A DNA stretch of 64,000 nt from Candidatus Parcubacteria bacterium (GTDB lineage Bacteria > Patescibacteriota > Minisyncoccia > Minisyncoccales > JAGMDC01): assembly GCA_023130975.1 (NCBI GenBank), contig JAGMAD010000005.1, positions 22,933-86,932 of the forward strand, in the 5' to 3' direction. The notes beneath the pieces are model-generated. The model was not told the origin of the DNA and ran no database searches. It worked only from the letters and a program-made list of their open reading frames with translations. A program made the position numbers and the translations under genes. Shown piece after piece: positions 2,643 through 57,035 of the stretch (its first letter is position 1; each line of letters begins with the position of its first letter).

Positions 2643-3741
2643 TTAGCTTTTAATTTCTGCTTCAATAAACTTATCCAAATTTCCGTCTAAAACAGCTTCC
2701 ACATTAGAGGTTTCAATGCTGGTCCGCAAGTCCTTGACCATTTTATATGGATGCAGAACATAAGACCTAATTTGATTCCCCCACTCAGCAGAAACTGATT
2801 TTCCTTTCACTTCCTTGATTTCTTTTTGTCTTTCTTTTTCTTTCATTTGATAAAGCTTAGCATACAATAATTTCATTGCTTTTTCTTTATTCAAGCCCTG
2901 GAGGCGCTCACCCTGGCAGCTTACCACAATATTAGTTGGAAGATGAGTAATACGAATGGCTGATTCTCTTCTGTTGACATACTGGCCACCAGGACCAGAA
3001 GCCCGAAAAGCATCAATTCTTAAATCATCTGGACTGATTTTTATTTCTTTTTCGTCTATCCTTGAAATCTCTGGCAAAACTTCAATTAAAGCAAAAGAGG
3101 TATGGCGGAGTTTTTGTGGAGAAAAAGGAGAAATGCGAACCAAACGGTGAACCCCGGTCTCTTTCTTCAAAAATCCAAAAGCGTATTTTCCTTTAATTTC
3201 CAGAGTTGCTGATTTAGTTCCAATCCTTCCTTCTGGTCCTCCTCCTTCTCCAAAGGACTGATGTAAAATTTTTGTCTTAAATTCTTTTCCTGCGCAATAT
3301 CTTTCATACATCCGTAAAAGCATTGTTGCCCAGTCCTGGGCGTCCTGGCCGCCAGCACCAGAATATATGGATAAAACAGTATTTCCTTTATCGTATTTTC
3401 CGGAAAGAAAAGTTTTTTCTTCCTCTTTTTTTATTTCTTTTTCAAATTGAAAAATTCTTTCTTCTATTTCTTTTTCTAATGTTTCATCACTTAATTTAAT
3501 TATTTCTTTTAACTCCTCTAAATTTTCTTTAAGTTTTTCAAATTTCTCTTTTTCTTCTTTTAAATCCGCTAATTCTTGGGAAATCTCAGCTGCCTTTTCC
3601 TGGTTCTGCCAAAAATCCGGTTTCTGAATTTCTTTTTCTAATTCTTGAATTTTTTCTTGCTTTTTAATTAAGTCAAAGACAGTCCGCCAACTGGCGGAGT
3701 TTACCTTCTAAATCTTTGATTGTTTCTTCAAAACTTTTCAT
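2643..3741 (-). CDS. prfB: Peptide chain release factor 2, expressed through a programmed +1 frameshift (22 codons in frame 0, then 343 codons)
   Basis: Frame 0 from the ATG at 3741 reads MKSFEETIKDLEGKLRQLADCL then TGA. Shifting +1 at CTT-TGA-C continues DLIKKQEKIQELEKEIQKPDFWQNQ...SGAGGQDAQDWATMLLRMYERY, which joins ORF-track ORF 2643..3323. The SPF and GGQ motifs are present. Confidence 0.9.
3672..3690 (-). promoter_or_regulatory. RF2 autoregulatory +1 frameshift site (CTT TGA C) with an upstream GGCGGA purine-rich element
   Basis: The minus strand reads TTGGCGGACTGTCTTTGAC. CTT is 3678-3676, TGA is 3675-3673 and GAC is 3674-3672. The heptamer is identical to the E. coli prfB shift site. 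Confidence 0.85.
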
Positions 3742-11990: not shown

Positions 11991-12073
11991 CCCCCCACCA
12001 CTTTGTCAAAAGTCAAAATAAATGAGGAAATATTTAGGAAATTTTAGATGGCGTTTTACAAAGTGGTGGGGGG
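11991..12073. mobile_element. 83-nt palindromic MITE-like element, intergenic copy
   Basis: Perfect 16-bp terminal inverted repeats CCCCCCACCACTTTGT (11991-12006) and ACAAAGTGGTGGGGGG (12058-12073). TTGA direct repeats flank it at 11987-11990 and 12074-12077. Confidence 0.7.
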
Positions 12074-12101
12074 TTGATAAGATTTTATGGTTGTGTATAA
12101 T
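12074..12101 (+). promoter_or_regulatory. Candidate plus-strand promoter TTGATA-N16-TATAAT with no downstream ORF
   Basis: TTGATA at 12074-12079 and TATAAT at 12096-12101. The -35 box overlaps the right flanking TTGA of the element. Confidence 0.4.
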
Positions 12102-12330
12102 GAAAATTGCCATGATAGGCACAATAGGAAAGTTTTGAAAACGCGTGAACCGGGACCATAAAAGTTGCCCATTTGGTAACTTTTGGAAAGGTAGCAATAG
12201 GAATGAGATAGGAGCAACTATCAAATGTATTTTTTAGGAGCCGTTTGGCTCAATGCAGATAGCATCCTATCCTTCTCCTATTGTCATATAGCACACTTAC
12301 AATTTCATAGATTTCATTTCTCACGATCAT

Positions 12331-12367
12331 AAGGTATTGCCATATTAGGAATACCTTCCTTTTTTTA
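12331..12367 (+). terminator. Candidate plus-strand intrinsic terminator
   Basis: AAGGTATT (12331-12338), a loop, AATACCTT (12350-12357), then CCTTTTTTT. It is oriented for the plus strand although both neighbouring genes are on the minus strand. Confidence 0.4.
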
Positions 12368-12390
12368 TTATAATGAGCGTCTCCTAAAAA

Positions 12391-13512
12391 TTACTTTCCC
12401 GAGCATATTGCTTCTATTCCTACCAACTTTTCATCAACTAAATAATCAAGCATTGCGCCGCCGCCAGTGGAAACAAAACTAAATTTTTTAATTAAACCAA
12501 CCCTGGTTAAAAACTCAATCGTCTCCCCTCCTCCAACTACTGAAAAAGCTTTACCTTTAACAACAGCTTTGGCAATCTCTCTTGTAGCTTTAGAAAATCT
12601 CTTTTCTTCAGTTTTTCCCAATGGACCATTCCAAAAAATGGTTTTTGCTTTTTTAATTTTTTCAATAAATATTTTTATTGTTTTTTCTCCAATATCACCG
12701 CTATCCACCCAGTCCACAGGAAGAATAATTTTTTCTGGATATTTAAATTTTACATTCTGCCATTCTATTTCTTTAGGTATCAGGCCGCCAATTAAAACAT
12801 AATCAGTTGTTTCAGAAAGTTTGTTAATCAATTTTACTTTTGTTTTTACTTTGGCGCCGCCAATTATTGCTATTAAAGGTTTTTTTGGCTTAAACATTAA
12901 TTGTTTCAATGTCTCTATTTCTTTTTCTACTGAAAAACCAATACCTGAAGGCAAAAACTTTGGCAGACCAGTAATTGAGGCATGGGAACGATGGCAAACA
13001 GCAAAAGCATCATTAATATAAACCCCGCACCTTTTGTCGGCTAACTTTCTTAATTTAGGTGCTGAAGGTACCTTGCTGACAAAAGGTGCGGGGTAAATAT
13101 CGCCTGTTAATTTTGCCAAGTCCTTCGCAAATTTTTCATTATTTTCTTTCTCCCCTTTGTAAAATCTTAAATTCTCCAAAACAACAATATCTCCTGATTC
13201 CATTTTTTCTATTTCCTTTTCAACCTTATCGCCAATACAATCCGAAAAAAACCTAACTTTTTTATTTAATAATTCTCCTAATCTATTGGCAATTGGTCTT
13301 AAGCTAAACTTTTCTTCTCTTTTTTCCGGCCTGCCGAGATGACTAATTATAATAATCTTAGCTTGATTTTTTGCCAAATATTCAATGCTGGGAATAGCTG
13401 CTTTAATCCGAAAATCATCTAAAATATCCCCTTGTTTTGACAAAGGGACATTAAAATCAGTTCTTAATAAAACTCTTTTTCCTTGAAAATCAAAATCTTT
13501 TAATGTCTTCAT
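12391..13512 (-). CDS. pgk: Phosphoglycerate kinase, carrying a 25-codon element-derived insertion
   Basis: KRVLLRTDFNVP, IIISHLGRP, INDAFAVCHRSHAS, GGAKVKTK and STGGGAMLDYL. The ATG overlaps the stop of the upstream ATPase gene (ATGA). Confidence 0.93.
   Translation of the reverse strand: MKTLKDFDFQGKRVLLRTDFNVPLSKQGDILDDFRIKAAIPSIEYLAKNQAKIIIISHLGRPEKREEKFSLRPIANRLGELLNKKVRFFSDCIGDKVEKEIEKMESGDIVVLENLRFYKGEKENNEKFAKDLAKLTGDIYPAPFVSKVPSAPKLRKLADKRCGVYINDAFAVCHRSHASITGLPKFLPSGIGFSVEKEIETLKQLMFKPKKPLIAIIGGAKVKTKVKLINKLSETTDYVLIGGLIPKEIEWQNVKFKYPEKIILPVDWVDSGDIGEKTIKIFIEKIKKAKTIFWNGPLGKTEEKRFSKATREIAKAVVKGKAFSVVGGGETIEFLTRVGLIKKFSFVSTGGGAMLDYLVDEKLVGIEAICSGK
13023..13093. mobile_element. 71-nt palindromic MITE-like element inserted in frame in pgk
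   Basis: Perfect 16-bp terminal inverted repeats CCCCGCACCTTTTGTC (13023-13038) and GACAAAAGGTGCGGGG (13078-13093). TAAA flanks lie at 13019-13022 and 13094-13097. The total of 75 nt equals 25 codons. Confidence 0.75.
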
Positions 13513-27228: not shown

Positions 27229-27296
27229 CCCCGCACCTTTTCTAGACAGCTTTGAATTTTTGAAGCCTTTGGCTTCTGTCCAGAAAAGGTGCGGGG
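27229..27296. mobile_element. 68-nt palindromic element copy forming a 23-bp stem with a T-run upstream of secA
   Basis: AACCCCGCACCTTTTCTAGACAG ... CTGTCCAGAAAAGGTGCGGGGTT. The terminal 13 nt CCCCGCACCTTTT are identical to the pgk copy. On the minus strand it is followed by GTTTTTTTTAT. Confidence 0.7.
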
Positions 27297-27534: not shown

Positions 27535-27544
27535 CTGTAATTAA

Positions 27545-27620
27545 AAATTTTCAATTATCAATTTTCAATTTTCATTAAATTTTCAATTCTTTAATTTTCA
27601 ATAATTAGAAATTAGAAATT
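27545..27620. repeat. Degenerate TTTTCAA-rich tract downstream of murB
   Basis: ATTTTCAATTATCAATTTTCAATTTTCATTAAATTTTCAATTCTTTAATTTTCAAT. This is the reverse complement of the TTGAAAA heptamer repeated inside murB. Confidence 0.5.
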
Positions 27621-27621
27621 T

Positions 27622-28581
27622 CTATTGTAGATATTTTATCTCTTCTTTCAGTTTAATTCCGAATTTTTCTTTTACTTTTCCTTTTGCTAAATTTATTAAT
27701 TTCAAAACATCTTTTGCCTTGGCATCACCTAAATTGACAATGAAATTAGCATGCTTTTCAGAAATCTGGGCTTTGCCAGCCTTCTTTCCTTTTAGTCCGC
27801 ATTTCTCAATCAGCCAACCAGCAGGATGTTTCTTGGGGTTTTGGAATATTGAGCCAGCTGAAGGAAAATTTAAGGGTTGATTGTCTTTTCGCCATTTTAG
27901 ATTCTCTCTTACTCTTTTTTTGATTTCTTCTTTATCTCCTTTTTTTAATTCAATTTCTGCTGAAAGAATTATCAAGTTCTTGTTGTGTTTAAAAATACTA
28001 TCCCTGTATTTAAACTTACAATCTTTTTTCTTCAAAATTCTGGTTTGGAATTTGGAGTTTGGAATTTGGGATTTGTTTGGGATTTGGGATTTGGGATTTG
28101 GGATTTCCAAAACCGTTACGGTTTTGGTTATATCTTTCATTGACTGTTCAAAAGCGCTAGCATTCCCTCTAATAGCACCACCAACTGTTATTCCCGGAAT
28201 TCCTACTGCCCATTCCATACCAATTAATCCATTTTTTGTCGCTTCTAAAACTAACAAAGATAGAGGTGCCCCTGCTCCAACATTAATTTTTGTAATTTGA
28301 GATTTGGGATTTGATTGAAAATTGAAAATTGAAAATTGAAAATTTATAACTAGTCCCTGGTATCCCTCATCTGCCACAAGAACATTGCTTCCACCACCTA
28401 AAACAAAAAAAGACAGCTTTAATTCATTTGCTGTCTTAATAGCTTTGATTAAATCATCTTTATTTTTTGCTGTATAAAAATATTTTGCCGGGCCGCCAAT
28501 CTTAAAGGTTGTATAATTTTTCAATAAAATGTTTTTCTTAAACTTTTTAAAAATTTTAGATTTTGATTTGTCATTTTGCAT
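27622..28581 (-). CDS. murB: UDP-N-acetylenolpyruvoylglucosamine reductase MurB
   Basis: NYTTFKIGGPAKYF, FVLGGGSNVLV, GIPGTVGGAIRGNA and GSIFQNP. Two heptamer-repeat tracts interrupt it in frame. Confidence 0.88.
   Translation of the reverse strand: MQNDKSKSKIFKKFKKNILLKNYTTFKIGGPAKYFYTAKNKDDLIKAIKTANELKLSFFVLGGGSNVLVADEGYQGLVINFQFSIFNFQSNPKSQITKINVGAGAPLSLLVLEATKNGLIGMEWAVGIPGITVGGAIRGNASAFEQSMKDITKTVTVLEIPNPKSQIPNKSQIPNSKFQTRILKKKDCKFKYRDSIFKHNKNLIILSAEIELKKGDKEEIKKRVRENLKWRKDNQPLNFPSAGSIFQNPKKHPAGWLIEKCGLKGKKAGKAQISEKHANFIVNLGDAKAKDVLKLINLAKGKVKEKFGIKLKEEIKYLQ
28042..28108. repeat. Heptanucleotide array (GATTTGG-type, about 9 units, imperfect) inside murB
   Basis: GGTTTGG AATTTGG AGTTTGG AATTTGG GATTTGT TTGG GATTTGG GATTTGG GATTTGG GATTTCC. 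It encodes EIPNPKSQIPNKSQIPNSKFQT. Confidence 0.85.
28295..28343. repeat. Heptanucleotide array (ATTTGNG x3, then TGAAAAT x4) inside murB
   Basis: ATTTGAG ATTTGGG ATTTGAT TGAAAAT TGAAAAT TGAAAAT TGAAAAT. It encodes NFQFSIFNFQSNPKSQI. Confidence 0.85.
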
Positions 28582-30530: not shown

Positions 30531-31691
30531 ATGTATTTTGTTCATCCCCAAATAAATTTAAACAAAAAAAATTTTCAGAAAATATTCTCTTCTTTTTTCC
30601 GAACTCCTGATTCAAAGGGCTTAAACAAAAAGCTCTCTTCTTTCTTTCCGGAAAAGCAGATTGTTTTTACTGACATGGGCAGGTCGGCTTTTCAAATCAT
30701 AATTGAAAAAATGAATTTAAGAAACAGCCAGATGCTTTTTCCTGCTTACATCTGCGATATCTTCCTGCCCATTTTTAAGAAATATAATATTAAACCGATT
30801 TTCTTAGATGCTGATATTAAGACCTTTAATTTAAAAATTGAAGAAATGGAAAAGAAAACCAGTCCCCAAACCAAATCTATTTTTGTTTCCCATATTTACG
30901 GCCTGCCTAATAACATAAATAAGATATTGTTTATCGCTAAAAAACATAATTTAAAAGTCATTGAGGACTGCGCCCATAGTTTTGGGATAAAAAAGGGAAA
31001 AAGATATTTAGGAAATTTTGGTGAGGCCTCTTTGTTCAGTTTATACAAATTTCTTCCGGTTGCTAGAGGAGGAATGCTGGTCTGTCCCAAGAACTGGAAA
31101 ATAGATTTAGAAGAAACATCTTTCAGTCCCCGTGATTTTATTTCTTTCTTAAACCATTTTCCTTTTTGGGCTTTTCTGTTTAAAAAATTTGGCGGCTTCG
31201 TTTCTCCAAAAATAATAAGAAAAGAAAAGCTGTCTAAGACCGGAGGAATTAACAAGGTCTCTTTGAATCTATTTTCTTCTCTCTTTGAAGAACACCAGAA
31301 AAATTTAAAAAAAAGAATAAATCTTGGCTTGTTTTTTCAAAAAGAACTTAAAAATTTAGGCTTTGAGACCCGGGAAGGAAAAGAGAATGGTTTTTGCTAT
31401 CTTTCTGTTTTAATGCCAAAAAAATTGAGAGAAAAAAGAGATGATTTTATAAAAGGACTGAGAAAAGAAGGTGTCCATTGTACAAGAATGTGGTATAGTC
31501 CTATAGTTCTTAATCCGGAAGCGCAAAAAAAATACAAATTAGACCTAAATGAATTTCCAAATACCATAGAGATAAGCCAAAGAGTTATTAATTTTCCTTT
31601 GCAGGATTTCTTTCAGAAAAAAGACATAAAAGAAATGATTGGAAAAATAAAGAAAGTGCTTAATTCACTTGACCCCGTAGTGAAAATTTGA
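30531..31691 (+). CDS. DegT/DnrJ/EryC1/StrS-family protein (aminotransferase-like)
   Basis: PAYICDIFLPIFKKYNIKPIFLDAD, VSHIYGLP, VIEDCAHSFG and SLYKFLPVARGG. The last codons and the stop lie inside a palindromic element. Confidence 0.6.
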   Translation: MYFVHPQINLNKKNFQKIFSSFFRTPDSKGLNKKLSSFFPEKQIVFTDMGRSAFQIIIEKMNLRNSQMLFPAYICDIFLPIFKKYNIKPIFLDADIKTFNLKIEEMEKKTSPQTKSIFVSHIYGLPNNINKILFIAKKHNLKVIEDCAHSFGIKKGKRYLGNFGEASLFSLYKFLPVARGGMLVCPKNWKIDLEETSFSPRDFISFLNHFPFWAFLFKKFGGFVSPKIIRKEKLSKTGGINKVSLNLFSSLFEEHQKNLKKRINLGLFFQKELKNLGFETREGKENGFCYLSVLMPKKLREKRDDFIKGLRKEGVHCTRMWYSPIVLNPEAQKKYKLDLNEFPNTIEISQRVINFPLQDFFQKKDIKEMIGKIKKVLNSLDPVVKI

Positions 31692-31748
31692 CAAAGTTTT
31701 CTTTTGGAAAACTCATATCGCAAAGCGAGTCAAATTTCTACTACGGGG
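31673..31748. mobile_element. 76-nt palindromic MITE-like element overlapping the 3' end of the DegT-like gene
   Basis: The arms are CCCCGTAGTGAAAATTTGAC and GTCAAATTTCTACTACGGGG. TTGA flanks lie at 31669-31672 and 31749-31752. The stop codon at 31689-31691 lies inside the element. Confidence 0.65.
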
Positions 31749-31834
31749 TTGACACAAGTTCTTGAATTTGCTAACATTAGATTAGTGAGTGTGAGATCCT
31801 ATGAGAAATCAAAGGAACTCCATTCTTTGTCGGC

Positions 31835-31875
31835 AAAAGACCCCGGTTTCCGGGGTCTTTTGCTTTCTCTTTTTT
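31835..31875. terminator. Bidirectional rho-independent terminator between convergent genes
   Basis: AAAAGACCCCG-gtttc-CGGGGTCTTTT followed by GCTTTCTCTTTTTT. Confidence 0.75.
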
Positions 31876-54662: not shown

Positions 54663-57035
54663 ATGGAAAACAATATCGTTGAAAATAAAATAAAATGGGT
54701 TTATCTTCTGGGCTTTTTTTTAATTTTGGCCTTACCGCTTTTGAATCTACCGCCCTGGTTCTCGCCGCCTGACTGGGGGAAAACCATTGTTTTTAGGATT
54801 ATTCTATCTCTAATGATTTTTGTTTTTCTATGGCAAGTCCTTTTCCAGAAATTAAATGATAATTTATCATTGATCATTAAAAATATATTAAATAAGCAAA
54901 GTAAGGTTTTTTTAAGTTTCTGGCTCTTGATTGCTTTCTTAGGAGTTTACTTCTTGGCTACCCTATTTTCTCAAGACCCATATTTCAGCTTTTGGGGATC
55001 TCCTTACCGTGCCGGTGGATTTCTTAATTTCGCTTTCTGTATAATTTTTGCTATTTTAGCTTTTTTAATTCTCCGAAAATCTGACTGGCAAAAAATCTGG
55101 GATTTTAGTATAATTATTGGAATTTTTGTCTCATTTATTGCTATCTTTCAGCAACTCGGTCTTTTTAGTAAGGTAGTTATTCCTTTTTCCGGTAGAGCGC
55201 CTTCTACTATCGGCGGACCAATATTTTTGGCAATTTATCTTTTGCTTTTATTTTTTCCTATCTTATTTTTTGGTATTAGAGAAAAAAATCTTGTTAAGAA
55301 GTTTTTTTATTTTTTTGCTCTTTTATTATTTTTTTATGTTATCTTAAATACTGGAAGCCGAGCCGCTTATTTTGGATTATTAATTGGAATCTTTTATTTT
55401 GTTCTTTTCTACCCTGTTAAATTCCACTTTGCGGCACCCAGCCTTTTACAGAAAGGCGGGGTATTTAACAGGGTGGACCCCCACACCAAAAAGCTTTTTT
55501 TAGTCAAAATCTTTTTTGGAATCCTTTTGGTTTTAGGAATTTTGGGAGTTTATTATTTGAATGCTGATTACCAAGTCCCTCAATCTTTTCAAGAAAACAA
55601 GATTTTTAAAACAGTCAATTCAAGATTATCTATCAGTTTAGCCATAAAAGATCCTCGTTTCTCCAGTTGGGAAATTGCTTTCAGGGCAATGAAAAAAAAA
55701 CCGATTTTGGGTTATGGGCCGGAAAATTTTTCAATTGGTTTTGATAAGCATTATGACCCTTCTTTGCCATACATTGATCCGGATTGGGGCAGTTGGTATG
55801 ACCGTGCCCATAATTTTATTTTTGATATTGGGGTTACTGTAGGAATTTTAGGTCTGATTATTTACCTTTCCCTTTTTGCAGTTTTATTCTCTGGATTACA
55901 AAAACTAAAAAAAATTAAACCAGAAAAAATAATAATATATCATGGAATTCAAGCTGCTTTCTTAGCTTATTTGGCAGCTAATTTCTTTAGTTTTGATACT
56001 TTTTCAACCTACTTAATATCGTTTTTAATAATTGCTTATAGTTTAACTTTAATAAATCAATCAGAAAAAAAGCAAAATGAAATCATTAAACCAAAAATTA
56101 GAAGTGTCCAAAAACTCACGATCGTGAAAATTTGGACACTTTTAAAAAAATATAAAAAAGCAATTATTGTTATTTTATTTTTATTCTTAATCTGGTTTAT
56201 CTGGGCTTGTAATATCAAACCTTTTTGGATTAACAAAGAAATCCGTTCTACTAAAACTCAATCTCAAATTGGGAATTATCAACAAGGCCTGAAACAATTA
56301 GAAAGCGTCTTGGATTCTCACACTTATTTAGACAGTTATTTAAGATTAAATTATGTTGAGCTTATTAGCCAAAACCTAGAAAAAACTCCGCCGGCTTTTC
56401 AGGGAATTTTAGTGGAAAAAGCAATCAATGCTTTAAAGGAAAATACTGAAATCAGACCTTATTATACCAGAAACTGGTTATTGCTGGGAAATTATACCAA
56501 TGTTTTGATTGAGAAAGGAAAAAAAAACCTAAGAGGAGAAGCATATTACTATTTTGAAAAAGCTCTTCAATTAAGCCCTAAGCACTTAGAAATTTTCATT
56601 GGTCTGGCAAAAACCGATTTATTAACCAATGATTATTTAGGAGCAAAAAATAATGCCCAAAAATGCATCAATTTAAATTCAAAAGTTGGAGAATGCTGGT
56701 GGTTAATGGCTATAACTAATATCTATTTGAATAACATTGAAGAAGCCCAGGGAAACATAGAAGCAGCAAGAAAAGCAATATATCCTGTTGGCTCAAAATC
56801 CTCTACTGCTCAACTTATAAATGCCTATAATTACATCAAAAACTATGAAGAAATAGTTAAAATTTATCAAACATTAATTTTGCAAGAACCAAACAATGCT
56901 CAATATCATTTCTCCTTAGCAGTTTATTATAAAGAACTGGGTAATAATGAAAAAGCAAAAAAAGAAGCTCTAAGGGCTTTAGAGCTAATGCCAGAAGCAA
57001 AGAAACAAATAGAAGAGTTTTTAAAAACTCTTTAA
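54663..57035 (+). CDS. O-antigen-ligase-like (Wzy_C domain) polytopic membrane protein fused to C-terminal TPR repeats
   Basis: NTGSRAAYFGLLIG and YDRAHNFIFDIGVTVGILGL show the Wzy_C pattern. The C-terminal ~250 aa has TPR-like repeats (YYFEKALQLSP, AVYYKELGNNEKAKKEALRALEL). Confidence 0.75.
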   Translation: MENNIVENKIKWVYLLGFFLILALPLLNLPPWFSPPDWGKTIVFRIILSLMIFVFLWQVLFQKLNDNLSLIIKNILNKQSKVFLSFWLLIAFLGVYFLATLFSQDPYFSFWGSPYRAGGFLNFAFCIIFAILAFLILRKSDWQKIWDFSIIIGIFVSFIAIFQQLGLFSKVVIPFSGRAPSTIGGPIFLAIYLLLLFFPILFFGIREKNLVKKFFYFFALLLFFYVILNTGSRAAYFGLLIGIFYFVLFYPVKFHFAAPSLLQKGGVFNRVDPHTKKLFLVKIFFGILLVLGILGVYYLNADYQVPQSFQENKIFKTVNSRLSISLAIKDPRFSSWEIAFRAMKKKPILGYGPENFSIGFDKHYDPSLPYIDPDWGSWYDRAHNFIFDIGVTVGILGLIIYLSLFAVLFSGLQKLKKIKPEKIIIYHGIQAAFLAYLAANFFSFDTFSTYLISFLIIAYSLTLINQSEKKQNEIIKPKIRSVQKLTIVKIWTLLKKYKKAIIVILFLFLIWFIWACNIKPFWINKEIRSTKTQSQIGNYQQGLKQLESVLDSHTYLDSYLRLNYVELISQNLEKTPPAFQGILVEKAINALKENTEIRPYYTRNWLLLGNYTNVLIEKGKKNLRGEAYYYFEKALQLSPKHLEIFIGLAKTDLLTNDYLGAKNNAQKCINLNSKVGECWWLMAITNIYLNNIEEAQGNIEAARKAIYPVGSKSSTAQLINAYNYIKNYEEIVKIYQTLILQEPNNAQYHFSLAVYYKELGNNEKAKKEALRALELMPEAKKQIEEFLKTL
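55411..55474. repeat. 64-nt nested palindrome in frame inside the Wzy_C gene
   Basis: The outer 12-bp inverted repeat is ACCCTGTTAAAT and ATTTAACAGGGT. The inner one is GCCTTTT/GAAAGGC. It is followed by CCCCCACACCAAA, which is identical to the recJ element terminus. Confidence 0.6.

Follow-up and report, generated by a model that had tools for sequence, protein, structure and literature searches.

The window considered here is a stretch of 64,000 nucleotides from a Candidatus Parcubacteria bacterium (GenBank assembly GCA_023130975.1, contig JAGMAD010000005.1, positions 22,933 to 86,932 of the forward strand), and all coordinates below, other than those given with another locus, count from its first letter. 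Its base composition is 33% G+C, secA, murB and a class A RNase P RNA are all encoded in it, and its nearest relatives are recorded as Candidatus Nealsonbacteria or Parcubacteria. The subject is the end of a gene for an aminotransferase of the DegT/DnrJ/EryC1 family and the 76-nt hairpin, at 31673-31748, within which that gene terminates. The hairpin is, with a probability of roughly 85%, a miniature inverted-repeat transposable element (MITE) that inserted at a TTGA which was thereby duplicated. The features at the locus are as follows, those without a strand being ones to which none is assigned.

30531..31691, + strand: DegT/DnrJ/EryC1-family aminotransferase gene, 386 aa, with its final 18 nt inside the element.
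31669..31672: left target site duplication, TTGA; a single TTGA at orthologous loci.
31673..31748: probable non-autonomous hairpin transposon (MITE), the ‘D-type copy’, 76 nt; 0 at four orthologous loci and 138 distinct copies elsewhere.
31673..31692: left terminal inverted repeat CCCCGTAGTGAAAATTTGAC (the GA arm), holding PVVKI (31674-31688) and the stop TGA (31689-31691).
31695..31713: interior hairpin 1, AGTTTTCT-TTT-GGAAAACT, from the predicted fold; the equivalent hairpin covaries in 38 copies.
31718..31728: interior hairpin 2, TCGC-AAA-GCGA, from the predicted fold; its equivalent likewise covaries in 38 copies.
31729..31748: right terminal inverted repeat GTCAAATTTCTACTACGGGG (the AG arm, read from its outer end), differing from the left arm at positions 10-11.
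31749..31752: right target site duplication, TTGA, which is also the first four bases of a -35 hexamer.
31749..31777, + strand: sigma-70-type promoter TTGACA-17-TAACAT, 10 of 12 matches, TG-extended, kept at orthologous loci without the element.
31751..31765, + strand: displaced remnant of the old 3′ end, GAC ACA AGT TCT TGA (D T S S stop), no longer in frame; compare GAC ATA AGT TCT TGA at the orthologous locus L001 and the protein end ...LDISS of P0001.
31784..31874, + strand: unannotated small RNA-like unit of ~90 nt, its start estimated from the -10 box, with a strong intrinsic terminator, the stem of which is at 31832-31864 and is followed by a T run.

The open reading frame (ORF) 30531..31691 matches Pfam PF01041 (DegT_DnrJ_EryC1) at an E-value of 7.5e-36, residues 84-373 of 386 aligning with positions 83-359 of the 360 in the profile, and the protein that it encodes ends NSLDPVVKI*. 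The last codons, CCC GTA GTG AAA ATT TGA (PVVKI and stop, 31674-31691), lie within the left arm of the element. The initial annotation had the 76-nt element, its arms, its coordinates and the TTGA on both flanks exactly as inspection of the sequence finds them. Its further statement that the element encodes DPVVKI and the TGA is right for PVVKI and the stop; it does not hold for the D, two bases of whose codon (GAC, 31671-31673) come from the target TTGA and the third from the element, the original residue there also being D. The arms are 20 nt each and complementary at 18 of the 20 positions, and 100 shuffles of the window yielded no chance arm match. Folded as a single strand, the element is far more stable than its shuffles (for RNA -34.4 kcal/mol, z -7.9; for DNA z -8.2), and the predicted fold is a three-way junction of a 20-pair stem, interrupted by a G.T/A.C tandem mismatch, with two small hairpins.

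Might such a hairpin serve the expression of its neighbours? A role as intrinsic terminator was considered and rejected, as the stem is followed by TTGACACAAG, with no T run, and a terminator scan gives only the separate hairpin at 31832-31864. Promoters pointing inward or outward from the arms fared no better, the TTGAC in the arm being, as judged by eye, without a usable -10 box at the right spacing. Rfam 15 gave no family, neither at gathering thresholds for the whole window nor in E-value mode around two of the copies, and the only hits were sub-threshold hairpins resembling microRNA precursors.

What stood at the site before? At four orthologous loci (L001, L002, L167 and L169) the element is absent and the DNA reads ...CAC-TTGA-CA..., with one TTGA. 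The comparison of C-terminal lengths that the initial annotation had proposed is telling here: the closest orthologues (P0001, P0002, P0003 and P0007) have 384 aa versus 386 in the window, P0001-P0005 and P0007 all end in LD, three further residues and a stop, and none of the orthologues ends DPVVKI. A single TTGA at the empty sites and orthologues ending LDxxx* mean a real insertion with a 4-bp target duplication, and they show that, of replacement and truncation of the original 3′ end, both of which had been envisaged, it was replacement that occurred. Taking the element and one TTGA out of the window leaves ...AAT TCA CTT GAC ACA AGT TCT TGA, i.e., NSLDTSS*, where L001 has NSLDISS*. A remnant of the old coding sequence had been anticipated downstream in the same frame; it is present, at 31751-31765, but the 80 nt added by the insert have put it out of frame. 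The insertion, in short, turned ...LD-TSS* into ...LD-PVVKI*. As judged from the Pfam alignment, the aminotransferase domain is entire by residue 373, ahead of the insertion junction, and so the exchange of three C-terminal residues for five was probably of slight effect on the protein, near-neutral. The identical filled allele is present in independent assemblies from four sequencing runs, and it is therefore not an assembly artefact.

The gene end is not all that the target TTGA served. The TTGA in which the element landed contributed to the final codons of the DegT-family gene (cTT GAc) and, at the same time, began the TTGACA -35 box of the next transcription unit. Since the insertion translation runs 18 nt into the left arm (PVVKI, TGA), with the old TSS and stop shifted downstream, and the duplication of TTGA remakes TTGACA on the right side, so that the promoter of the small RNA-like unit keeps its -35/-10 geometry. 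Promoter and unit are kept in L001, L002, L167 and L169, all of them without the element. The unit (31784-31874) has no Rfam match and no conserved ORF. At about 1330-1420 of L169, a more distant relative whose DegT orthologue is 79% identical, a hairpin of the CCCCCACCACTTTGTC... family lies within the unit's orthologue, where it takes the place of the first stem-loop. That the TTGA is part of a conserved TTGACA -35 box, that the family is Patescibacteria-wide and that the copies in the window represent several families had not been seen in the initial annotation.

The wider family was sought by scanning a degenerate arm, CCCCGTAGTRRAAATTTGAC, against a collection with one genome per species, metagenomes and viral contigs. 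Among the species-representative genomes it found 35 stretches, all with titles of Patescibacteria type or of an unclassified bacterium (Nealsonbacteria, Parcubacteria, Liptonbacteria, Buchananbacteria, Minisyncoccales, Patescibacteria group, Saccharibacteria-labelled bins and ‘bacterium’). The metagenomes gave at least 120 stretches, hence at least 155 with the genomes, and the viral contigs gave 0. Across these 35 genome and at least 120 metagenome stretches the copies are dispersed at sites with different flanks. The statistics that follow rest on the matches listed: 138 distinct copies after deduplication, most of them 70-79 nt, with 132 copies from metagenome loci and 34 from genome loci plus the window. 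At strict boundaries, perfect direct repeats of 4 or 5 bp flank 91 of the 132 metagenome-locus copies, the commonest being TTTA, CAAG, CTTG, TTGA and TAAA; the target flanks follow roughly Y-W-W-R, a palindromic class of target, and copies with identical arms bear differing 4-bp repeats (TTGA, CTTG, TTTA, CAAG, TAAA, TATG and others). In about one copy in five (27/138) the element contains the end of an open frame of 100 codons or more, so the DegT case is typical of the family. Elements may also be nested, a copy of one arm family lying inside that of another, as in L030 (497-646) and L081 (235-431).

Two features of the copies go beyond their outline. One arm reads ...TAGTGAAAA and the other ...TAGTAGAAA, and this GA/AG asymmetry at positions 10-11 is found in 126 of the 132 metagenome-locus copies and in each of the 34 that come from genome loci or the window; among the listed arms, judged by eye, it recurs in sister families with different inner arms. 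The interior, variable in sequence, keeps its two hairpins: in an alignment of 38 copies, double compensatory changes are seen at every one of the 13 interior pairs, pairing holds in 95% of cells versus 35-50% with the partners slid, and none of 500 shuffles reaches the observed values. Relative to the GA and AG arms the interior may lie either way round, the copy in the window having the minority arrangement.

How often does an element abut a promoter as it does here? Among the matches listed, 43 of the 138 copies adjoin TTGA at offset 0 or 1, and after a spacer of 16-18 nt TAnnnT follows in 37 of those 43 (86%), against 14% of intergenic and 6% of coding TTGA sites in the same DNA; some 27% of copies adjoin a TTGA that serves as a sigma-70-type -35 box. 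The position profile of TAnnnT has a sharp peak at +23 from the element end, with 42 of 269 flanks versus ~7 elsewhere. The genes behind promoters phased in this way include tRNA-Lys, a tRNA-Met operon, 23S rRNA and 16S rRNA. In the 23S rRNA case, on metagenome contig Ga0210017_1004577, the promoter that precedes the gene has the element at the edge of its -35 box, and the gene itself holds a group I intron (L064, 5131-5459). When twelve promoter-adjacent copies were checked by eye, the GA arm faced the promoter in six and the AG arm in six. For the phasing there are two candidate accounts: either the enzyme would favour Y-W-W-R/TTGA targets that border -35 boxes on their upstream side, or insertions elsewhere would be lost from these gene-dense genomes.

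Three further copies lie in the window, and the four together represent three arm families that share a terminal CCCC, extended to CCCCG in all except the copy at 11991-12073. No strand is assigned to them.

11991..12073: sister element CCCCCCACCACTTTGT..., of another arm family, 83 nt, flanked TTGA/TTGA, 12 nt upstream of the start codon of a DHH gene and adjoining TTGATA-16-TATAAT.
13023..13093: sister element CCCCGCACCTTTT..., 71 nt, which with a 4-bp duplication makes 75 nt; a 25-codon in-frame insert in pgk.
27229..27296: sister element CCCCGCACCTTTT..., 68 nt, between secA and murB, with flanks ACAA/TTGG and no direct repeat.

The copy in pgk (12391..13512, - strand) places the 25 codons PAPFVSKVPSAPKLRKLADKRCGVY between GDIY and INDAF and so splits a conserved motif. 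It is shared with P0122/L165, whose PGK is 78% identical, and is absent from twelve other aligned PGKs and from the consensus of an 80-sequence alignment; the empty site in L166, GATATTTATATTAAT, has a single TTTA. The initial annotation had taken the 4-bp duplications to reflect real transposition, and empty sites now bear this out for both the DegT copy (single TTGA) and the pgk copy (single TTTA). It had also given the copy at 11991-12073 the same TTGA on both sides, as is seen in the sequence, and TAAA to copies in pgk and recJ. The pgk copy is indeed bounded TAAA/TAAA on the + strand, but no separate recJ copy with TAAA was found, and the copy that adjoins the DHH/recJ-like gene is the TTGA one at 11991-12073. 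An AlphaFold model of PGK with the insert keeps the PGK fold, with a mean predicted local distance difference test score of 90.7; the insert is modelled as a low-confidence loop (residues 142-151 and 153-157 below 50), and the duplicated VYIND makes the native strand. Six other PGKs of the candidate phyla radiation (P0128, P0165, P0175, P0187, P0193 and P0240) carry different inserts of ~25-45 residues at other positions, and the housekeeping enzymes of this clade may often contain insertions in frame, perhaps derived from other mobile repeats.

Directly after the copy at 11991-12073 comes a near-consensus promoter, TTGATA-16-TATAAT, on the + strand, and ~260 nt on (~12332-12368) a hairpin with a T run. 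The interval 12074-12368, between pgk and the DHH gene, both of which are on the opposite strand, may be another unannotated RNA gene; it has no Rfam match. The hairpin at 27229-27296 is at the same position in L002 (~90% DNA identity), with 88% identity over the whole 430-nt spacer. A weaker 62-nt hairpin, CCCTGTTAAATTCC...GGTATTTAACAGGG, at 55412-55473 in a Wzy_C/TPR gene has no direct repeat, and may be due to chance or be a decayed relative. Of a different nature are the runs of short TTTGGGA-like and ATTTTCA-like repeats within and just downstream of murB (27622..28581, - strand), at 28037-28132 and at 27538-27596 / 28294-28352; among them is a 59-nt inverted pair with 81% complementarity. 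Elsewhere in the window the PCRF match of a release-factor ORF (2643-3323, - strand) is confined to the latter half of that domain (profile 121-193), as would fit an N-terminal part encoded in another frame and the programmed frameshift that is usual for prfB.

To what class does the 76-nt element belong? Its small size without any coding capacity, its terminal inverted repeats, a target duplication evident from the comparison of filled and empty sites, and its multiple dispersed copies are the marks of a MITE. The known bacterial MITEs (Correia/NEMIS of Neisseria, RUP, ERIC, bcr1, MITEAba12) are likewise small and non-coding with long terminal inverted repeats, a short A/T-rich target duplication and many dispersed copies, and they frequently overlap gene ends, altering C-termini. 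In contrast to them, the family described here has an end, CCCCGTAGT..., that was not found in the literature searched, hosts that are Patescibacteria, a 4-bp Y-W-W-R/TTGA duplication instead of TA, a fixed difference between its arms at positions 10-11, covarying interior hairpins, around one quarter of its copies at the exact upstream edge of a -35 box, and no known parent insertion sequence. The palindromic elements of Rickettsia (RPE), ~100-150 bp in length, are also mobile in a reduced genome and enter protein-coding genes; the pgk copy, with its 25 codons in frame, fits that pattern, whereas the DegT copy adds 80 nt out of frame and ends the protein rather than extending it. Fusions of MITEs with ORFs are not unusual (RPE, ERIC, BOX, QMITE1; PMC10969869). 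The family is thus of a kind already known, itself apparently undescribed, and an altered gene end is an ordinary outcome for such elements.

The element would have been moved in trans, by a transposase making 4-bp, occasionally 5-bp, staggered cuts and presumably recognising the conserved 20-bp ends. Among known transposons, those of the IS1380/piggyBac kind have ends that start CC(C) and an A/T-rich target duplication of 4 or 5 bp (TTAA for piggyBac). The junctions here read TTGA|CCCC...GGGG|TTGA, and as the likeness is in the ends and the duplication length only, it is a lead and not a classification. (The relationship of piggyBac to IS1380 is stated in PMC5718144.) The covarying three-way junction and the invariant GA/AG difference suggest, in addition, that a folded single strand, whether of DNA or RNA, matters for propagation.

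Several points weigh against a MITE moved by such a transposase. Pfam scans of 29 ORFs of the window (from the part up to ~33.8 kb, plus 54663..57035) detected no transposase or integrase. The metagenome-derived loci contained no arm pairs 260-4000 nt apart, and 1.1 Mb of fetched loci contained no full-length parent, i.e., CCCC...GGGG ends 300-4000 nt apart with matching flanks; apart from pairs of separate small elements, the search for long elements returned only L109, a non-coding relative of 329 nt. A solo arm in L020, followed by a ribosome-binding site and ATG, was entertained as the start of a full-length element and dropped, as what follows is a short membrane-like peptide and then argS-like sequence, with no second arm. 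Interior hairpins that covary are not expected of a plain double-strand cut-and-paste element, and roughly one quarter to one third of the copies are without a perfect direct repeat at strict boundaries, part of which mutated termini explain. Some of the promoter-adjacent copies are orthologous to each other, so that their counts overstate the number of independent events, and ~30 independent sites are estimated. Lastly, L001, the closest empty allele, is 100% identical to the window for ~2.76 kb and then only ~84-88% from ~25 nt before the site (L001 ~2765-2864 versus window 31645-31830), and could represent either a haplotype that has recombined or a chimera of the assembly. A claim that the element is a recent strain-level polymorphism was withdrawn on account of that upstream divergence.

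Could the hairpin instead be mobilised as single-stranded DNA by an HUH/Y1 enzyme, in the manner of REP/REPIN-RAYT or of IS200/IS605-TnpA, and not be a DDE-type MITE at all? REPs and REPINs are likewise hairpins of ~70-100 nt made of two inverted arms, with GTAG near the outer end and pairing kept among copies, and in the elements described here GTAG is near the outer end of the arm, the whole is a long hairpin whose interior hairpins are kept by compensatory change, the tandem G.T/A.C mismatch in the stem is conserved, and no transposase with matching ends is present in the loci and window ORFs scanned. However, HUH elements are known to insert beside a fixed tetra- or pentanucleotide without duplicating it, and this is not what is found: copies with identical arms carry varying 4-bp direct repeats, and two empty sites, in DegT and pgk, show that the repeat is a duplicated target. 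Nor is a single arm itself a REP-like stem-loop, and sister families have GTTAG or GCAC where GTAG stands. A mechanism like that of REPIN/RAYT is improbable, given direct repeats that differ from copy to copy and represent duplicated target.

An alternative of another type is that the element serves first of all as a structured RNA or a regulatory module (a 3′ stabiliser or a terminator for the gene upstream, say, or a palindrome next to promoters to which a protein binds) and that selection for this function has spread it. A stable three-way junction with covarying helices would suit this, as would the exact seat at the upstream edge of -35 boxes, those of rRNA and tRNA promoters included, and the conservation of one sister copy (27229-27296) between relatives ~90% identical in DNA. 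Yet the four orthologous loci keep both promoter and small RNA unit without the element, either arm faces the promoter equally often in the twelve checked by eye, and the interior lies now one way round, now the other, relative to the arms; the stem lacks a following T run, Rfam has no matching family, and template switching within a palindrome could yield compensatory changes without selection. A primary function of this sort is, on balance, very improbable. As for a chance palindrome or an assembly artefact, for which only the small size and metagenomic origin would speak, the probability is negligible given that no chance match is expected, that the filled allele is in assemblies from four runs and that more than 150 related stretches exist elsewhere.

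The MITE reading can be extended further. Rather speculatively, the elements may form a transposon superfamily specific to the candidate phyla radiation that homes to the upstream edges of sigma-70 -35 boxes, at rRNA, tRNA and small RNA promoters, by way of, or in dependence on, a three-way junction folded from a single strand, in which the G.T/A.C mismatch would be obligatory; in a variant of the proposal the elements spread a protein-binding palindrome and so wire promoters into one regulon. The odds for this are on the low side. If true, homing to -35 edges through a folded form would be a mode of targeting and propagation undescribed for bacterial MITEs. The literature searched held no paper on MITEs or palindromic elements in Patescibacteria, nor any citing the arm sequence, and the family, its host clade, the exact -35 phasing and the conserved folded interior are new in that no description of any of them was found there.

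Genomes of the candidate phyla radiation, at ~1 Mb, are usually thought poor in mobile elements. They nevertheless hold a diverse and apparently undescribed superfamily of hairpin transposons, whose members reshape gene ends and enter conserved enzymes in frame, the pgk copy having been retained in two lineages. For annotation the consequence is that odd C-termini, inserts of 25-45 residues and apparent variation in gene length may often stem from such elements. The exact -35 phasing offers a route to promoters and unannotated small RNA genes in organisms that cannot be cultured. Should the phasing stem from targeting and not from survival, bacteria would have provided a new case of transposition directed to promoters.

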